Shown one piece after another: positions 1 to 10,329 of a DNA stretch of 10,515 nt. The notes under the pieces were generated by a model that was given only the letters and a program-made list of their open reading frames with translations, made no database searches and had not been told where the DNA came from. The stretch comes from Myxococcota bacterium (GTDB lineage Bacteria; Myxococcota; SpSt-1050). The stretch spans positions 1-10,515 of the forward strand of contig JBMFOP010000101.1 of assembly GCA_049969675.1 (NCBI GenBank). The letters run 5' to 3'. A program made the position numbers and the translations under genes. Within the stretch, counting starts at the first letter, position 1. Each line of letters starts with the position of its first letter.

Positions 1-390
1 CTTTTGGATTCCCTCATCAATATTTTGGTTATCTTCTGAATCTTCCATCTCATTTTCCACAATATTTTCAATTTTTTGTTTTGTTTCGTGATGTGAAAAT
101 GAACCGTCTTTTGCAGTGCTTATTAAATCATAAGTCTCTCTGTTTGTGCCAATGCCAACTAGAATTCTTATCCGCTCACTCCCTTCAAGTGGTTTATACA
201 ATGCATGAAACCCGCTTACATAAAAATAACCAACGAGACAATCAAAAAACTTGCAATCCTTTATTAGCTGTTCAAATCTATTTTTAAGTGTTTTACCCGC
301 TTCATTTACTATAAATGTTAAATCTAAAGATAAATGCTCATCTTCAGTCCAGTTATAAATTTCTTTGGGATATTTCTTTTCTTTGGTCAT
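1..390 (-). CDS. N-terminal 130 aa (runs off window) of a probable PLD-nuclease-domain / SNF2-family helicase of the kind found in restriction-modification/defence loci
   Basis: Hand translation from ATG 390-388, open to base 1: MTKEKKYPKEIYNWTEDEHLSLDLTFIVNEAGKTLKNRFEQLIKDCKFFDCLVGYFYVSGFHALYKPLEGSERIRILVGIGTNRETYDLI...SHHETKQKIENIVENEMEDSEDNQNIDEGIQK. The FDCLVGYFY.SGF and IRILVG blocks match, from recall, the N-terminal PLD-like domain of such helicases. The HxK and helicase motifs would lie outside the window. Missed by the ORF track because there is no stop in the window. Confidence 0.8.
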   Translation of the reverse strand, partial: MTKEKKYPKEIYNWTEDEHLSLDLTFIVNEAGKTLKNRFEQLIKDCKFFDCLVGYFYVSGFHALYKPLEGSERIRILVGIGTNRETYDLISTAKDGSFSHHETKQKIENIVENEMEDSEDNQNIDEGIQK

Positions 391-393
391 AAA

Positions 394-495
394 TTACTTT
401 TCTCTGCCTTTTTTCTTTGAGGAAGACTTTACATTCTCTGTTATCCTTTCTAATGACCCTTCACCTGTCCATTTATCTATTATATCTTTTTTAAA
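394..495 (-). pseudogene. Startless 3' remnant of a probable excisionase-family (HTH_17/MerR-like) DNA-binding protein gene
   Basis: Open frame FKKDIIDKWTGEGSLERITENVKSSSKKKGREK* ends 3 nt before the helicase ATG, in the same frame. FKKDIIDKW resembles the WRFKKxxIDxWI C-terminal motif of HTH_17 proteins. No start codon; upstream the frame is closed by a TGA inside the repeat. Confidence 0.5.
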
Positions 496-532
496 GTTTC
501 AATCCTTATTTTAATGGAAGTGGGGTTAAAAC
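496..532 (-). CRISPR. Solitary 37-bp CRISPR direct repeat (class 1-like, ATTGAAAC 3' end); not a multi-unit array
   Basis: Minus strand GTTTTAACCCCACTTCCATTAAAATAAGGATTGAAAC: 37 nt, GTTT...GAAAC ends, canonical 8-nt ATTGAAAC handle and a short TCC/GGA stem. The 3' 23 nt differ at one position from the recalled repeat-family end TCCATTAAAACAAGGATTGAAAC. Only one intact copy is present. Confidence 0.8.
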
Positions 533-651
533 GGATTTCAAAGAACAGGGATATCATATCAATTATTTTCTTAAATGCAAATTTGTTTTGGACAAATATG
601 GATCTGTATGTGTATTTTTTAGGTTTTTAATAATTAGAATTACAGTCAAAA
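533..651 (-). promoter_or_regulatory. AT-rich CRISPR leader-like region with sigma70-type promoter (TTGCAT-N16-TATGAT, extended -10 TGn)
   Basis: Non-coding, about 24% GC by hand count (29/119). On the minus strand -35 TTGCAT is at 580-575 and -10 TATGAT at 558-553, preceded by TGA, 20 nt upstream of the repeat's 5' end. Confidence 0.55.
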
Positions 652-2100
652 TTATTTTTTTAGTGGTATCTTTTCAATCTCAAATTGAAACTGCTCCAGT
701 CTCTGAGCCTGTCTTTCATGCATCTTCTTGATTTCATTGAATCTCTCCTGCATCCTTTTATTGTAATCTGCGCTCTCACTCCCGATTGGTGCAATATTTC
801 TATAATCAATTGTCCGTTTTATCTGTAGCCAGATCTCCTTGTAAAGTTCATTTAAGTGTCTTTTAAGCTCCTCTGAAAACTCCCAGTTGAAGATGGTCTC
901 CTTGCTTGATGGTGAACGCCAGAGAATGATCTCATCCACATCCCCATATCCCCTGATATGCCTATCTACAATCTCAAATGCCGGATATGTATAAGTGGGA
1001 AATCTATCTGTATAGACAGTGATTGTAATTGTTCTGTCCTTTGAGAGTGTTACACCAATAAAATTATCTCCAAATTGAAACAATTTAAGACTTTTGGGGT
1101 CCAGAAGGTATGAGATCAGTCGGAACTGTTCGCTCGTATTCAAAAAAGATAGTTCCTTCTGTGGATTGGGGATAATTGATTTCTTATTCCTGATAAAATC
1201 TATCAGGTCATCAATCCCTACGACGAGGTTCAGCCCTTTCCCCTCAGAGTAGAAGGCGTGATATAGCCCTACGAGCTCATATTCTCCACTTTCACAATTT
1301 ATTGCAAAGACTGGTGAACCGCTCTGGCCGGTATTGAGCTGTGCATCAACTATAAAATCGGTATGGTGCCAATCTCCGTCATTGTCTTCTATATTCACAT
1401 TTATCACCTTCCCTGTATTGCTTGCATTAAATATCCCGAGAGGGAATCCCTTTATCATAACAACATTCCCGGTTTTGAGCTCCGAAGAGGAACCGAGCTT
1501 ATAAGGTATAGGTCTTATATTTACCTTCCCCTCCAGGATTGCCGCATCCAGCTCCGGTGCAATGGCAATGACCTTCAGTTCAATGAAGTTCTTCTCAAAT
1601 GTATCATTTTCATTCTGGACGATCTTGATTACCTCCCCGACCTTTTTGGAGCCAAATGGCACACCCTCAAGTCTATTATTCTCTGTGGTGACGAGTGGTT
1701 GATTCGCCACATGCTCATTGGTCAGAAAATATACTGTCTCCCCTTTCTTCTCAAAAGGGAATGCTGTCCCATGAATTACATATTTAATAAATCTCTTATT
1801 TATCTTCCCGTCTTCAGAATAGAAGATCTGTTCGTATGTTGTGGTATTTCTGATACAGACCGAATAGTTGCTACTTGAGGACTTCTCAAATTCCATTACC
1901 TCTCTCTTTAATGCCTCAATATTATCCGCATATCTGCCTGTGCACCTCAAAGAATCCCCTTTTCTGTTCTCCACATTCTGTATCTTCGCATCTATGTCTG
2001 TATCTTTGTCAAACACCTCTTCAGATCTTACCCTCTCTTTGGAGCAGTCAAGAATGGAGAATAGACAGATCAGTAAAGAAAATAATCTCAAAACCTTCAT
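652..2100 (-). CDS. Trypsin-like (S1, Trypsin_2) serine protease, exported / possible lipoprotein, with uncharacterised C-terminal domain
   Basis: Catalytic triad motifs FLTNEHVA (His), ELDAAIL (Asp), LNTGQSGSP (Ser), plus GFPLG. Start placed at ATG 2100 because MKVLRLFSLLICLFSILDC forms a signal peptide (atypical lipobox); the ORF-track start at 2157 is less likely. Confidence 0.88.
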   Translation of the reverse strand: MKVLRLFSLLICLFSILDCSKERVRSEEVFDKDTDIDAKIQNVENRKGDSLRCTGRYADNIEALKREVMEFEKSSSSNYSVCIRNTTTYEQIFYSEDGKINKRFIKYVIHGTAFPFEKKGETVYFLTNEHVANQPLVTTENNRLEGVPFGSKKVGEVIKIVQNENDTFEKNFIELKVIAIAPELDAAILEGKVNIRPIPYKLGSSSELKTGNVVMIKGFPLGIFNASNTGKVINVNIEDNDGDWHHTDFIVDAQLNTGQSGSPVFAINCESGEYELVGLYHAFYSEGKGLNLVVGIDDLIDFIRNKKSIIPNPQKELSFLNTSEQFRLISYLLDPKSLKLFQFGDNFIGVTLSKDRTITITVYTDRFPTYTYPAFEIVDRHIRGYGDVDEIILWRSPSSKETIFNWEFSEELKRHLNELYKEIWLQIKRTIDYRNIAPIGSESADYNKRMQERFNEIKKMHERQAQRLEQFQFEIEKIPLKK

Positions 2101-2275
2101 ATAAATATTTATATCATCAAAACGGCTATTATCAAGAAATAGGCAGAGCAAATTCAATTTTTGTATTAAAACACATCTGCCTTTTTAATTGAAGCCTGAA
2201 GGATGTTGAATTTTTAAGAGGATGACTTTTACCCCGTCTGCATACGCATCCACCCCTCTACTAATCTCAACAGAA

Positions 2276-4055: not shown

Positions 4056-5267
4056 CTATTCATATCTAAGGGCATCAATGGGGTTCATATCGGCGGCTCG
4101 TTTTGCAGGGAATACTCCAAATATTATGCCGACAGCCACAGAAAAACCGAATGAAAGCATAAATATCCACGGTGTCAGCTGCACCTGAAAGTCTGGCACT
4201 AATGAATTAAATACGATTATTGTAAGCAGTCCAAGCAAGAGGCCGACTACCCCTCCGAGCAGAGAGATTGTTACACTCTCAATTAAGAATTGAATTAGTA
4301 TATCAGACCTTCTGGCACCGACAGCGATTCTGATACCAATCTCACGGGTCTTCTCCTTGACTGTCACAAGCATAATGTTCATAATCCCGATGCCCCCTAC
4401 CAGAAGAGATATACTTGCAATCCCGAGTACGACCAGTTGCATAGTGGACGCAATCTTTTCAAATGTGGAGAGCATATCCTTCTGAGAAATTATTGTAAAG
4501 TCCTCATTCCCATTATGTGCCTTTTTCATCAATTCATTTATCTCATCTATTGCTGCATCTACATTTGAGGCGGAATTTGCCTTAACTGTTATCCTTGTAA
4601 GTCCTTCTTGATTAAACATATCCATTGCTATAGTAAGAGGGATATATACAATGTCGTCCATATCAATTCCGAGTGATTGTCCCTTGCTCTGCATTACCCC
4701 AATTACAGTGAATCGCCCGCCAGCCACAGTCATCTGTTTCCCGAGCCGATTCTCGCCCTGAAAGAGCTCTTTTAGAACCGTGTGGCCAATAACCGCTACC
4801 TTCTTGCGACTTGATACATCTTCCTCAGATATAAAAGAGCCGCTTTCAACTGGCATATTATGAATATATGAAAATGTCTCATTTGTACCTATTATCATCA
4901 GATCTCTCTGTCTATTCTGATATTTTGTATTCCCTCCCCCCATTATAAGACCATTTACTGTCTCAAATGTCCTTCCCCGTTTTTTTAAGAACACCATATC
5001 AGAGAGACTGAGCTTCCTTACTGTATTAATCATCGGGTGTGGCGCTCCACCTTTTGTATCTTTTTTACCTGGCAACACAATCAGTAGATTTGAACCCATA
5101 CCGGAGAACAGATCTGCGAAATAGATTTTTGCCCCTTCGCCGAGTGATACGAGGATTACAACAGAATATACACCAATTACAATCCCGAGTGTGGTCAGAA
5201 ATGTCCGCCATTTATTCAGAAGGGCAGATTGAAACGCTGTCTTAAAAAACTCAAAGAGATCCACCAC
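4056..5267 (-). CDS. MacB/FtsX-family ABC transporter permease
   Basis: RTFLTTLGIVIGV N-terminal TM, large periplasmic domain, SLLVGGIGIMNIMLVTVKEKTREIGIRIAVGA signature and PIDALRYE C-terminus. GTG start (5267 or 5264) after AAGGAGA. Confidence 0.95.
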   Translation of the reverse strand: MVDLFEFFKTAFQSALLNKWRTFLTTLGIVIGVYSVVILVSLGEGAKIYFADLFSGMGSNLLIVLPGKKDTKGGAPHPMINTVRKLSLSDMVFLKKRGRTFETVNGLIMGGGNTKYQNRQRDLMIIGTNETFSYIHNMPVESGSFISEEDVSSRKKVAVIGHTVLKELFQGENRLGKQMTVAGGRFTVIGVMQSKGQSLGIDMDDIVYIPLTIAMDMFNQEGLTRITVKANSASNVDAAIDEINELMKKAHNGNEDFTIISQKDMLSTFEKIASTMQLVVLGIASISLLVGGIGIMNIMLVTVKEKTREIGIRIAVGARRSDILIQFLIESVTISLLGGVVGLLLGLLTIIVFNSLVPDFQVQLTPWIFMLSFGFSVAVGIIFGVFPAKRAADMNPIDALRYE

Positions 5268-5949
5268 TATTCTCCTTATCTTCTATAATATTCCCATCAA
5301 GTATCCTCACAATCCTTCTCGCCACATTTGCCACATTCAGGTCGTGAGTAACCAGTACAATCGTCACACCCTTCTCAGAGTTTAGCTTGCCAAAAAGGGA
5401 GATAATCTCCTTACCTACCTTCTGGTCCAGATTCCCTGTTGGTTCATCAGCAAGAATAATATCTGGATTATTCACAATAGCCCTCGCAATCGCCACCCTC
5501 TGACGTTCACCTCCTGAGAGCTCAGATGGTCTGTGCCTATTTCTATGAGTTAGGTTTGCACTCTTTAATGCCTTTAGTGCGAGCCTCTCACGCTCCCGTG
5601 GACCGACACCGCTATAGAGAAGAGGGAGGGCGACATTATTTAACACATTATATTGTGGGAGAAGATTGTAATTCTGAAAGACGAAGCCAATTCGTCTATT
5701 CCTCATATAAGCGAGCTTCTCATCCCTCAGATCCTTTACATTTACACCGTCAAAGAAGTAATCACCGCTGGTTGGACTCTCCAGACATCCGAGAATATGC
5801 ATTAGAGTTGACTTACCAGACCCAGAGGGACCTATTATAGATATAAACTCCCCTTTCTCAATTTTGAGATTTATATTATTTAAGGCGACAACTTCCTCTG
5901 AGCCCAGATGATAGATTCGAGAGATATTCTTGAGTTCAATGAGTGCCAT
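5251..5949 (-). CDS. ABC transporter ATP-binding protein (MacB/LolD/FtsE-like)
   Basis: Walker A GPSGSGKST, Q-loop GFVFQ, signature LSGGERQRV, Walker B/D-loop ILADEPTGNLD, H-loop VTHD. Start is coupled to the upstream stop (TGATG). Confidence 0.97.
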   Translation of the reverse strand: MALIELKNISRIYHLGSEEVVALNNINLKIEKGEFISIIGPSGSGKSTLMHILGCLESPTSGDYFFDGVNVKDLRDEKLAYMRNRRIGFVFQNYNLLPQYNVLNNVALPLLYSGVGPRERERLALKALKSANLTHRNRHRPSELSGGERQRVAIARAIVNNPDIILADEPTGNLDQKVGKEIISLFGKLNSEKGVTIVLVTHDLNVANVARRIVRILDGNIIEDKENSGGSL

Positions 5950-7091
5950 CAGAACTTCCTGGACCTCTTCATTGTTCGCTTATTTATCTTCATTCCATCT
6001 TTTAACTCTTCAGAGTTGAGGGGCACCACAACCTTCTCTAATTCAGTTACTCCCGAAAGAATCTCTGTCTTCTCCCAGTTAGAAAGACCTGTTTCAATTG
6101 CCTTTTTTTCAATTGTATCTCCTTTGATTACATATACATATTTCTCACCATATTTCCCGACAATCACCTGTGATGGCAGATACTTTACAGACTCTTTTTT
6201 GTTTACTACCACCTCTGCCTCAAATGTCATCCCTATTCTCATATCAGGTTCTGGTGTAGATATCTCAAAATGCACCTCTACACCTCGGGACGCCTTGATG
6301 TCCGTTGAGACGACCGGTGATATCCAGCTAACCCTCCCTTCAATAACCCTTCCCTGAACGGCATCCGTCTTTAATCTGACCTTCATACCTGTTGTAATTT
6401 TCGCTGCGTCTACTTCATCAAATCGGGCAGAGAGATAATACCTCTCATCGCTAAAGAGTTCATATATTGGTGTTCCGGGGACCAGATACTCCCCTATCTC
6501 AACGAACATATCAGATATGACTCCATCAAAGGGCGCCCTGATTAGCGTATTCTCATATAGAGAGCGTGCAATCTTTAGTTGTGCCTCCAGTTGAAGTATA
6601 TTTGCCTCAGAGACATTTAATGCCTCCTGAATCACCTGAGATTCTGTCTTTGCCTGATCCAGATTTGATTCAGAGACCACCTTCTCTGAGAATAGCCTCT
6701 CTGCCCTCTCAAGGCTCTTCTGAAGATTTGAAGACCTTATCTTTGTCTGCCTTAATTGAGCTATACCGGCATTAAGGTTTGCCTCTGCAAGTTTAAGCCT
6801 TGCAAACTGCTCATCATTCTTAAGTTTGATAATTAAGTCGCCTCTTTTTACTCTATCACCCTTCCTGAAGAATATCTTCTCTATCTCCCCATTTGTAGAT
6901 GCCCTTATATGTGCAGACATATCCGGTTGGAGGACTGCATTTGAGAGTGGGGTTACAACCTCCTCAATATCGCCTTCCATCAGGACGGTATATTCAACAT
7001 CTAAAAGCCTTTTGGGCCAGAGATAAAAGAGTAGAAAGATGACTGTCAGGGGAAGTATGACATATCTGAATATTTTCTTTACAGTGTTCAA
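5949..7091 (-). CDS. Periplasmic adaptor / membrane-fusion protein (MacA/HlyD family)
   Basis: N-terminal TM, lipoyl-like halves (GEIEKIFFRKGDRVKRGDLI; IRAPFDGVI), coiled-coil hairpin, FDEVD and MRIGMT motifs. Start placed at TTG 7091 after a GAGGAG RBS, just downstream of the upstream gene's stop at 7096. Confidence 0.92.
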   Translation of the reverse strand: MNTVKKIFRYVILPLTVIFLLFYLWPKRLLDVEYTVLMEGDIEEVVTPLSNAVLQPDMSAHIRASTNGEIEKIFFRKGDRVKRGDLIIKLKNDEQFARLKLAEANLNAGIAQLRQTKIRSSNLQKSLERAERLFSEKVVSESNLDQAKTESQVIQEALNVSEANILQLEAQLKIARSLYENTLIRAPFDGVISDMFVEIGEYLVPGTPIYELFSDERYYLSARFDEVDAAKITTGMKVRLKTDAVQGRVIEGRVSWISPVVSTDIKASRGVEVHFEISTPEPDMRIGMTFEAEVVVNKKESVKYLPSQVIVGKYGEKYVYVIKGDTIEKKAIETGLSNWEKTEILSGVTELEKVVVPLNSEELKDGMKINKRTMKRSRKF

Positions 7092-7095
7092 GTTG

Positions 7096-8340
7096 CTACT
7101 CCTCTGTAATATTAAACTCTTCAACAAGTTGATTATTGTTGTCAAATGATTTTACATTTATTGATGTATCACTCACATAAACTATAGAAAAGTTATAGAC
7201 CATCTGATACTTCACCATATAAGGCTCTTCTCCCACCTCATACTTAATCTCCCCTTCTGGATACAGAGGGGCTCCACCTCCACCTGAGACAAGATAATGA
7301 ATTCCGTCTTTATGCAGGTGTTCATAGAGATGATTATGCCCATTAAATACAAGTTTTGTACGGGTGGTTTTAAGTAGTGGCACAATGTAATTTCTGGCTT
7401 CTGCATCTGGAGAGTGCCTTGAGAATGTATATGGCGGATTATGAAATGCCACAAAGATATACTTTATATTCTTATTTGAATCCGCCGTCTCTATGTCCTG
7501 CTTAAACCATCTGTACTGCTCTGTATCATCTGAAATACCACACTCTATGCATAGAACAATAAAATGAGATTTCCCCCAATCAAATGAGTAATATCTATTC
7601 TCTCCATTCGGGAAGAGAAGCTGTCTCTTCCAGATATCCTCTCCACCACTCTCGTGATTTCCAAATGCCACAAAGAGCGCCGCCTTTCGAAATAATTGTG
7701 ACCCATCGTTGAAAAAGAGATACCACTCATCTTCAAGCCCACCTGAAAATACGATGTCACCTGTATTTATCACAAATTCTGGCTCGTACTTTGCTATAGT
7801 TGAAGTAATCTCTTTATGAGTGGGATTCTCCGCCATAAAAGGGGCACCGGGTCTATTATCTCCATATATAGCAAAAATAAAGTTATTGTCGGAGGAAGGT
7901 GTATGGAAGCCCCCCTCAAATGGAGTGGATAGTGAGAGAATGCGATAATTGTACTCTCTCTCCTCAGAAAGATAGTCAAAGTCTATTTTATATTGATAAA
8001 CATTTTTGATATGCTGGTCAGGACCCATCTTTAATGGCTGCTTTTCTGGTTCTACTATGTAGAGTTTACCATTCAATTCTACATATCCAGTCTCTTCTCT
8101 GTCAGTCTCCCAGAAGAGTGTAAACGAATCTGCCCCCCTGTAAGTTATATATGGATATCTTGTGAGACGGGAACTGAATTTCCCTATATCCGATATACCG
8201 GCATCTACATCTGTATCTGGTGCCTCCACATCAACGATATCATCAGCAATATTTGTAGAACCACCGTCAGATGAACAGGCATTTAAGCAAAGACCTGCAA
8301 GGTAAATGAAACAAAAATAAAGGTGTAAAATTCTTTTCAT
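7096..8340 (-). CDS. Calcineurin-like metallophosphoesterase (purple acid phosphatase-like architecture) lipoprotein
   Basis: Lipobox LNAC, Asp-rich linker and FN3-like N-domain (PY...FWETD). Motifs YGDNR, TGDIVF, FGNHE, FHNPPY, FNGHNHLYE, SGGGGAPLY. RBS GAGGT. Confidence 0.92.
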   Translation of the reverse strand: MKRILHLYFCFIYLAGLCLNACSSDGGSTNIADDIVDVEAPDTDVDAGISDIGKFSSRLTRYPYITYRGADSFTLFWETDREETGYVELNGKLYIVEPEKQPLKMGPDQHIKNVYQYKIDFDYLSEEREYNYRILSLSTPFEGGFHTPSSDNNFIFAIYGDNRPGAPFMAENPTHKEITSTIAKYEPEFVINTGDIVFSGGLEDEWYLFFNDGSQLFRKAALFVAFGNHESGGEDIWKRQLLFPNGENRYYSFDWGKSHFIVLCIECGISDDTEQYRWFKQDIETADSNKNIKYIFVAFHNPPYTFSRHSPDAEARNYIVPLLKTTRTKLVFNGHNHLYEHLHKDGIHYLVSGGGGAPLYPEGEIKYEVGEEPYMVKYQMVYNFSIVYVSDTSINVKSFDNNNQLVEEFNITEE

Positions 8341-8545: not shown

Positions 8546-9184
8546 ATGCTTGTTCAGAGACTTTTAAGTATAACACTTTCGGGTGCTGAGTGGGTATTAT
8601 ATCTTTTACTCATTCTCTCTGTCTTCTCTGTGGCGATTATGATTGAAAAATTTATCATCCTTAAGATAAGGGAGGCAAAGCGGGAGAGGGTTGATGAGAT
8701 CCTGAAGAAAATTAAAGAGAATGGAATAAATTCTATTCAGAAAGAGATTGAAGATAAAAGGACATTCTTTGAAAAGGTTCTCTTATATGTCATTAGAAAT
8801 GGTATTGAGCCGCAGAAGAGGGAGGAGTCTATAAGTATTGCTATTATGAGGGAGAGGCTGTACCTTGAAAAGAGGCTTATGTTTCTTGGGACACTTGGAA
8901 ACAATGCGCCATTTATCGGACTCTTCGGGACAGTGCTCGGAATAATCAAGGCATTTCACGACCTCTCTATTAACCAGCAAGGTGGCGCTGCAGTTGTGAT
9001 GGCAGGTATCTCCGAGGCACTGGTTGCCACCGCTGTGGGTCTATTTGTGGCAATCCCGGCGGTGGTGGCATACAACTACTTTATGAGATGGATAAAGAGA
9101 ATAGTTACAGATTCCGAGACATCTGTAAGAGAGGCATTTCTGATTTTAGGTAATATTGAATCAGGGGATAAAGATGGCAGGTAA
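8546..9184 (+). CDS. exbB: MotA/TolQ/ExbB proton channel family protein
   Basis: LGTLGNNAPFIGLFGTVLGIIKAF and GISEALVATAVGLFVAIPAVVAYNYF signatures; followed by an ExbD-like gene and a TonB. Confidence 0.93.
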   Translation: MLVQRLLSITLSGAEWVLYLLLILSVFSVAIMIEKFIILKIREAKRERVDEILKKIKENGINSIQKEIEDKRTFFEKVLLYVIRNGIEPQKREESISIAIMRERLYLEKRLMFLGTLGNNAPFIGLFGTVLGIIKAFHDLSINQQGGAAVVMAGISEALVATAVGLFVAIPAVVAYNYFMRWIKRIVTDSETSVREAFLILGNIESGDKDGR

Positions 9185-9581
9185 ATCTACAGAGAATGAA
9201 GAGATGATAACCGATATCAATGTGACTCCACTCGTGGATATTACACTGGTCCTCCTGATTATCTTTATGGTAACAGCGACATATATCGTCACACCTTCCA
9301 TTAAGGTAGAACTCCCAAAGGCAGCAAATAGTGAAGAGAGCAGCCCCTCTACCATCGCAATTGTGATTACAAAAGATGACAGAACTTTCTTAAATGGCGA
9401 GGAGGTCAACTCCGGTGCACTGGTTGAGAAGATTAAGAAGGCGGTTGAACTCAATCCAGATGTTCAGGCAATAATCAGCGCGGATAAATATGTCTACCAT
9501 GGAAAAGTGGTCAATATAATTGATGTGGTGAAGGGGGCGGGTATTACAAAGTTTGCAATCTCCATAGAAAAGAATGAATGA
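9174..9581 (+). CDS. exbD: Biopolymer transport protein ExbD/TolR
   Basis: INVTPLVDITLVLLIIFMV TM with conserved Asp, VELPKA, ISADK..YHGKVVNIIDVVKGAGITK. Start placed at ATG 9174 after GGGGA, overlapping the end of exbB. Confidence 0.93.
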   Translation: MAGKSTENEEMITDINVTPLVDITLVLLIIFMVTATYIVTPSIKVELPKAANSEESSPSTIAIVITKDDRTFLNGEEVNSGALVEKIKKAVELNPDVQAIISADKYVYHGKVVNIIDVVKGAGITKFAISIEKNE

Positions 9582-10329
9582 AGAGAGACTTACAAAGATT
9601 ATTTACCTATCTGTATTTGTCTCAATAGTCATACATTTTGGACTTGGTATTGCTGTTGTAAAAAGTGGAACAGGAGAACAGAAGAAAGAGACAATTATAT
9701 CATTTAATGTTGTAAAGGAGGCAAAGAAGGAGGTCGTTCCTGAACCACCAAAGGAAGAACCAAAACCGAAACCAGAAATTCCAAAACCTAAGAGGGTCGT
9801 TGACCTCACCAGAAAGGTAAAGATTGCGAAGCCAGAGGAGATAAAAGAGCAGAAAGAGCAACCTCCAATGGAGGCACAGAACGCACAGAACTTTGGAATT
9901 GATAGCTCCCTTGTAGATACCTCCGGGAAATCCTCCGTGGCGATGGCAATTCCTATAGGAGAGACTATGATTGGGGACCCGGGGCTTAAGAAGGGGAATT
10001 CAAACAAATTTATAAAGCCAGAGGATATAGCGCATAAAGAGAGATCGGTTGAGGTTATCAGTCAGATGCCAAAACTTATAAAAGAGGTAAAGCCCGTATA
10101 TCCCGAGGAGGCTAAGAGGCTGGGCATTGAGGGCTCTGTTGTGCTCCTGCTGGAGATTGATGAGAACGGGAATGTTGTATCCGCAAAGCCATTAAAAAAG
10201 GCCGGATACGGGATGGATGAGGAGGCACTAAAAGCCGCATATCAGCTAAAATTCTCACCCGCCCTCGCCGGCAAGACCCCTGTTAGAGCAAGGATAAAAT
10301 ATACATTCACATTTATACTGGAAGACTGA
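9574..10329 (+). CDS. tonB: Energy transducer TonB
   Basis: N-terminal TM with SxxxH (SIVIH), Pro/Lys/Glu-rich linker PEPPKEEPKPKPEIPKPK, and C-terminal TonB_C domain (PVYPEEAKRLGIEGSVVL...IDENGNV...FSPA). Confidence 0.94.
   Translation: MNEERLTKIIYLSVFVSIVIHFGLGIAVVKSGTGEQKKETIISFNVVKEAKKEVVPEPPKEEPKPKPEIPKPKRVVDLTRKVKIAKPEEIKEQKEQPPMEAQNAQNFGIDSSLVDTSGKSSVAMAIPIGETMIGDPGLKKGNSNKFIKPEDIAHKERSVEVISQMPKLIKEVKPVYPEEAKRLGIEGSVVLLLEIDENGNVVSAKPLKKAGYGMDEEALKAAYQLKFSPALAGKTPVRARIKYTFTFILED

Follow-up and report, generated by a model that had tools for sequence, protein, structure and literature searches.

A solitary type I-B CRISPR repeat stands in front of a PLD-SNF2 helicase gene, and we consider it somewhat probable that it marks a fusion scar with promoter capture, in which an HTH regulator gene and its native promoter were lost and the helicase gene was put under a CRISPR promoter. 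The window, that is, the whole stretch of 10,515 nt that was analysed, makes up all of contig C101 in a 3.05-Mb host genome (G000; 188 contigs). Its minus strand reads, in order, a trypsin-like gene (stop at 652), an AT-rich stretch, a promoter-like site, GTTCTTTGAAA, TCC, the repeat, 105 nt and an ATG at 390. As we picture the events, a type I-B locus related to, not identical with, that on contigs C42 and C164 would have been reduced to the end of cas4, the leader promoter, a boxA-like motif and the first repeat, and this reduced piece would have been joined, at the 3' edge of the repeat, inside the HTH gene of an HTH/PLD-SNF2 helicase/type IIG cassette. Homology comparisons establish the origin of each piece, as well as the loss of the 5' half and the promoter of the HTH gene. 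Because a CRISPR stub has replaced the front of the regulator gene, the helicase gene seems to be read from the CRISPR promoter; transcription would now start at ~546, would be free of HTH control and might be antiterminated, with the repeat as a passenger of the promoter.

Composition of the junction

The 37-nt repeat (496-532, minus strand; identified with Rfam CRISPR-DR7 and a genome scan) ends in ATTGAAAC, and a predicted Cas6b cut at 504/503 would leave an 8-nt handle (503-496). It scores 27.2 bits against CRISPR-DR7, under the gathering score of 37. When the host genome was scanned allowing 12 mismatches, the closest copy was the first repeat of the array on C164, with 4 mismatches in 37 (BLAST E 1e-6), and the other three matches had 12 mismatches each. 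Neither a second repeat nor any cas gene was found in the 10.5-kb window, which bears out the earlier note's reading of one intact minus-strand repeat on its own. The repeat core is absent from all three congeners and from all 400 genomes of the phylum that were searched. As an active array the unit falls short, since ~210 nt of leader present in C164 are missing and there is only one repeat.

The cognate array and cas6 for which the earlier note had proposed a BLASTN search are present in the host, as the C164 array and a Cas6b gene on C42. C164 holds cas1, cas2, cas4, a leader and an array with one spacer before the contig ends, and the end of C42 holds a 383-aa ORF followed by Cas7 (DevR), Cas5, Cas3 and Cas6b; the ORF has no family match and sits in the cas8 position. 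From the truncated ends of these separate contigs, we infer that they form one I-B locus. Cognate Cascade genes and a matching I-B processing nuclease, Cas6b, are hence encoded in trans in the host genome, as the note had supposed possible for Cas6. The window unit shares repeat length, handle, Cas6b, DevR-type Cas7 and the order cas1-cas2-cas4-leader with the Methanococcus-type I-B system, which has 37-nt repeats and Cas6b (PMC3479195); it differs in having no cas gene, no spacer and little of the leader. The host also carries a second I-B system with a shorter repeat (C153, C136, C29, and C176). Its arrays on C136, C176, and C29 intersperse two repeat variants that are one inserted G apart, and cas1 on C136 is reduced to 90 codons. 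The DNA upstream of cas6 on C153 is ~82% identical to that before an intact PLD-SNF2/Eco57I-type operon (C54:14339-14768, L217), and a broken second helicase copy lies at C54:7491-8027.

Upstream of the repeat, positions 536-588 match C164 321-373, which is the end of cas4 plus the first part of the leader, without gaps and with 40 of 53 bases identical; elsewhere in the genome, the best site reaches 33 of 53. The last cas4 codons (I-C-I-stop; 571..582, minus strand) overlap the -35 box as they do at the C164 cas4/leader junction, and cas4 in related loci ends CCY(K/R)NIC-x-stop immediately before the leader. The predicted leader promoter (553..580, minus strand) consists of a -35 box TTGCAT (580-575), 16 nt and an extended -10 element TGn-TATGAT (558-553), with a predicted transcription start near 546 and the same -35/-10 spacing as in the C164 leader. 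Taken alone, a sigma70-like promoter at 580-553 is at chance level (3 sites found, 2.0 expected). The boxA-like motif GTTCTTTGAAA (536..546, minus strand), a putative Nus antitermination signal, is found again in the two array leaders that the genome contains; in the form G(C/T)TCTTTGAAA it is kept in the window and in the other array leader, among 16 genome-wide matches. It resembles the B. subtilis boxA consensus, which binds NusB (PMC13753749), and nusB is present in the host genome. Only 3 nt separate the boxA-like motif from the repeat, compared with ~210 nt more in C164. A search of metagenomes for this compact boxA-plus-repeat pattern gave three matches, all judged by inspection to be chance.

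The earlier note had described the AT-rich DNA as a leader with a promoter and had suggested aligning 533-651 to host leaders. This description is borne out for 536-588, which aligns to C164, and fails for 589-651, which is not CRISPR leader and holds a dispersed host element. A truncated copy of this element (580..600, minus strand) breaks off where the CRISPR-derived piece begins, and its 15-nt core is found in 23 copies at up to one mismatch, with 0.8 expected in the host genome. Dispersed degenerate elements of this genome also include another core in well over 50 places, and they flank cas operons and restriction cassettes.

On the other side of the repeat, 102 of the 105 nt belong to an excisionase-type HTH gene, of which they form the 3' end (394..495, minus strand), so that this stretch is not a spacer; a second repeat after a short spacer was considered and rejected, as the region is HTH coding sequence. 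The remnant of this HTH_17/Mad1-like regulator gene is joined at the repeat's 3' edge and retains 33 codons and the stop but no start. It reads FKKDIIDKW...stop over 495-394, and the repeat places a stop in that frame. The remnant is 75-79% identical at the DNA level to helicase-upstream DNA in four loci (L026, L008, L015, and L024), every match begins at 495, and it is the sole match in the host genome. L026 encodes an intact 87-aa homologue (HTH_17 E 2e-16; PADLOC mad1 E 1e-8). At other loci, this HTH gene stands before a HinP1I-like nuclease (L181) and a DNA methyltransferase (L188), and at L026 before helicase-IIG. With the HTH regulators of restriction operons (PADLOC mad1), the window shares a small HTH gene directly before restriction-modification (R-M) genes and differs in keeping its last 33 codons only. 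Control by such regulators is C-protein-like, and Mad1, which is described as an accessory regulator-like gene, would repress its own operon.

A partial survey of 90 helicase loci, 77 of them with at least 300 nt upstream, placed the HTH gene upstream in five. In four of the five it is broken or strongly diverged, by a stop (L015), an insertion (L008), degradation (L024) or strong divergence (L029); judged from these loci, the HTH gene is dispensable. The L008 insertion (5781-5877) has inverted ends and splits the HTH gene; no copy of it was found in the host genome. A truncated HTH copy near 1500 in L187 (G401) diverges at the same codon as L008 into the same residues (NPALS).

The helicase gene (1..390, minus strand) starts at ATG 390 and encodes the N terminus of a ~1090-aa PLD and SNF2 family, which agrees with the note's placement of a PLD/SNF2-like gene 105 nt past the repeat on the same strand. 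The 130 aa encoded are 72% identical to a full-length member (P0009; PLDc_2, SNF2, and Helicase_C), and a protein of 98% identity continues, still open, as far as 275 aa. The contig end cuts the gene at residue 130, and the remainder is absent from the host assembly. A type IIG restriction-methyltransferase comes next in 37 of the 39 homologous loci with at least 5 kb downstream; the window ends within the helicase. No terminator-like site was found in 300-800, and the repeat lies in the sense orientation between the leader-derived promoter and the helicase gene; as the note had suggested, it thus appears to form part of the helicase 5' leader.

On the host side, the unit is flanked by conserved chromosomal genes, beginning with a trypsin-like peptidase gene (652..2157, minus strand; Pfam Trypsin_2), whereas the cassette side runs out at the contig end, position 1. 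Downstream of the trypsin-like gene, gene content differs among three congeners, and this site is therefore variable. Two other groups in the window, seen from translations only, are an ABC exporter trio (4056-7145) and a TolQ/ExbB-ExbD-TonB-like trio (8546-10329).

Scar or selected control

Several observations argue for the fusion scar. First, the three pieces have separate homologies and sharp borders, and the HTH gene, to judge from the 90 loci above, is dispensable. Second, congeners vary at this site, dispersed elements abound in the genome, and a second CRISPR scar exists in it, where a cas2 fragment lies directly before a single repeat of the second I-B system (G000:C143:1605-1858, L216). 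Third, orphan leader-plus-repeat units away from restriction genes occur in the genus of another genome, G406 (L153, L172, and L171). The window shares with the C143 scar and these remnants, as with repeat-edge deletions, a single repeat with a foreign flank; it differs in that the defence gene downstream has no evident promoter other than that of its unit. Fourth, no guide target was found, and the 37-nt repeat itself was absent from all 80 homologous loci in a partial survey of the best 80 of 512 confirmed (best match 26/37); the note had proposed such a survey. A further 14 loci, some of them re-finds, had no additional upstream repeats. In one genome of the set (G403), the same leader plus one repeat occupies two unrelated loci, L153 and L172.

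Set against the fusion scar, the losses spared exactly the -35, the -10, the boxA-like motif and the whole repeat with its handle, and the position of the join is precise to about two bases. The 3-nt gap between boxA-like motif and repeat also looks streamlined when the two leaders are compared. These features raise the possibility, which we regard as unlikely though worth keeping in view, of a selected guide-independent control: Cas6b would cut the 5' UTR repeat and Cas5/Cas7 would load on the handle, altering the stability or translation of the restriction mRNA, with a hairpin as the switch and the whole replacing the lost HTH regulator. In its favour are the compact promoter-boxA-repeat module, the intact handle, the cognate Cas6b in trans, and the cleavage by Cas6b in vitro of a single 37-nt repeat, which suffices and leaves an 8-nt handle (PMC3479195). 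Cas6b cleavage of the repeat in the helicase 5' UTR is accordingly a possible event under either reading. On the fusion-scar reading, Cas6b could cut the 5' UTR once and yield a long, targetless RNA with an 8-nt handle that would act as mRNA, and the hairpin may often hide the site.

This predicted long RNA hairpin spans 433..546 (minus strand) and pairs the boxA-like motif and the 5' 21 nt of the repeat with the HTH remnant, leaving the handle and the cut site in the loop. Its predicted energy is -28.2 kcal/mol (z -2.09), and 6 of 200 shuffles are as good. In the AAYAA-loop model of Cas6b recognition, repeat base 16 should pair with base 29; in the window RNA, base 16 is predicted to pair downstream with a probability >0.98 at 37-65 C, and the hairpin may thus hide the Cas6b site. 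The substitutions that set the window repeat apart favour the hairpin. Exchanging the window repeat for the C164 array repeat weakens it to -21.7, and random substitutions equal the native gain in only 17/3000 and 51/3000 trials, which speaks for selected control and against a mere scar. However, 213 of 2000 synonymous recodings pair as well as the native hairpin, and the tail of L188 gives -27.1 compared with -29.2; according to these folding models, most of the hairpin came with the coding sequence. Since recoded sequences and the L188 tail do nearly as well, co-evolution of the hairpin is not established; correction of imperfect hairpins by template switching leaves this signature even with no selection at work.

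A second line of support comes from another repeat family. When 500 nt upstream of the 90 loci were searched with a generic repeat pattern, 26 matches were obtained, and only a pair at L017:26-123 (G406:C75) was repeat-like, as judged by eye. There, two diverged 30-nt units, which agree with each other at 19/30 and each carry the ATTGAAAC handle, are separated by 38 nt and lie 45 nt before the ATG of a PLD-SNF2 helicase gene that is followed by an Eco57I-type gene; they match the array repeat of a congener at 21/30 and 18/30. By its sequence, the pair looks like a crRNA-like mini-array. In the same genome, L132:1436-1530 (G406:C11:4850-4879) contains a degenerate repeat-like stretch, a promoter and one repeat ~300 nt before an N6-methyltransferase gene. 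Both cases weigh against the fusion scar as the whole account, but no DevR-type Cas7 was found in G406, a genome whose completeness is not given, and L017 begins 25 nt before its first unit, which may be an array end. We therefore treat L017, one of 90 loci and at a contig start, as a hint of recurrence and not as enrichment. The window junction itself has been seen once, and the repeat plus HTH remnant had no match in viral contigs. As a separate observation, L119:395-502 (G402:C17) has a two-repeat mini-array right after the end of a transposase-like gene, with a repeat unlike that genome's main array. Were guide-independent control true, loss or inhibition of CRISPR proteins would retune the restriction system.

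Origin of the join and other readings

Compatible with the fusion scar, and in our estimate doubtful, is an origin of the join by Cas1-Cas2, in which the first repeat would have received a long DNA end from inside the HTH gene at its spacer-side edge, much as it receives a new spacer, or a break at that edge would have been resolved there. The homology of nine HTH homologues begins at the repeat edge or within two bases of it, and the repeat is followed directly by the four bases TTTA, a listed PAM for this repeat family, which is what an end that escaped trimming would leave. Just before the join, two of five HTH homologues match the repeat core at 12 of 13 bases (0/300 shuffles each), a third at 10 of 13 (9/300 shuffles), and the remaining two not at all. 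However, the core match lies 4 nt off register, and the tests were chosen after the alignment had been seen; TTA is common in AT-rich DNA, and the far end of the cassette is absent from the assembly. In addition, the triplet before the join in the nine homologues, none of which is the direct ancestor, is CGG in five and CAG, CGA, AGA, and TAC in the others; with TTN in 0/9, the joined sequence does not qualify as a canonical protospacer. Recombination through simple microhomology at the repeat core was also considered and was rejected, since the repeat is complete in its 3' part.

The earlier note had named crRNA-like regulators (CreA/CreR) and RNA anti-CRISPRs as roles that such solitary units can play. 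We consider a crRNA-like guide of the CreA/CreR/CRISIS type, directing Cascade to repress a promoter, to be very improbable. The layout invites it: a handle-bearing repeat directly follows its own predicted promoter beside an SNF2/methyltransferase-type defence gene, cognate Cascade and nuclease are encoded in the host, and CRISIS (bioRxiv 10.1101/2024.12.27.630466) includes such clusters and possible I-B cases. Nine bases after the repeat even match the unit's own promoter at 575, position 6 excepted, but GCA and not TTN occupies the PAM position there. The PAM was taken from a published table, in which 22 of 22 repeats ending like the window repeat have TTA, TTG, TTn or TTTA (PMC8482600, supplement file 2), because spacers gave no data-derived PAM: the one spacer of C164 had no viral match, and none of the 197 spacers from related arrays matched the collected loci or the host genome in full. 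Using the 36 nt after the repeat and requiring TTN, we scanned the assembled host DNA for seed matches against 30 shuffled versions; the best run was 12, compared with 9-16 for the shuffled spacers. Scans with TTN and without a PAM gave nothing above shuffles, at the cas promoters, at the unit's own promoter or elsewhere, and the unit therefore fails as a CreA/CRISIS guide. The absence of TTN before the join in all nine HTH homologues likewise means that the RNA would not target incoming HTH copies. The spacer-like part derives from coding sequence, and neither a second repeat nor a 3' hairpin closes it; when the RNA that begins at 503 was folded, 194 of 200 shuffles did better, and it showed no 3' structure. 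CRISIS/crlRNA units, including SMRD clusters, share with the window a solitary repeat by an SNF2-helicase/methyltransferase-type gene in a type I host. In that preprint, they lie after defence genes within the cas operon and guide Cascade to a PAM-flanked promoter site, whereas the window unit sits in a 5' UTR, far from cas genes, and has no target that we found and no defined 3' end. With neither target nor 3' structure, it resembles CRISIS and Racr in layout and departs from them in target, 3' end and context.

Still less probable is a Racr, an RNA anti-CRISPR carried by the cassette to titrate host Cas6b/Cas7. PMC10651486 describes solitary repeat units as one repeat just past a promoter, with a subtype matching the host, both of which the window shares, and ten helicase homologues lie on viral contigs. 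None of these ten has a repeat upstream, though, and the origin of the module is a cas4/leader junction; the window shows no sign of a phage, a plasmid or acr genes, and, unlike the units of that paper, this one runs into an mRNA. The two RNA roles that the note had named are not supported, given an HTH remnant as the "spacer", no second repeat and no PAM-flanked target above shuffles. One viral contig (L095:1500-1525) carries the lone 3' two thirds of this 37-nt repeat family and is a possible Racr candidate.

An assembly artefact at a repeat is barely credible: the site is 500 nt from the end of a contig in a fragmented assembly, but a separately assembled Logan contig (one study, possibly the same sample) bridges 250-1500 with 3 differences and no gaps, against the mis-joining that the note had named as fatal to its reading, and the repeat and leader differ in sequence from those of the C164 array. 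A second contig, in run X1, joins 471-495 to the helicase, with the repeat itself uncovered.

Meaning for restriction and CRISPR loci

In the literature searched, which left aside most subscription papers and bioRxiv supplements, we found no paper that places a CRISPR repeat in the 5' UTR of restriction genes. A broader proposal is that R-M operons have, time and again, taken CRISPR leader promoters and repeats into their 5' UTRs, so that a protein regulator gives way to guide-independent Cas6 cleavage and Cascade loading on the mRNA, possibly seeded by repeat-edge joins made by Cas1. We put it forward tentatively and think it unlikely; if true, the window, with its 37-nt family, and L017/L132, with a 30-nt family, would represent independent instances of it. 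Should Cas6b act on the helicase mRNA, CRISPR would control innate defence without guide-target pairing, unlike CreA, CreR, and CRISIS. As a mere scar, the junction would still show clearly how a CRISPR leader can turn into the promoter of another defence system, and would caution that what looks like the "spacer" of a solitary repeat may be left over from a gene.
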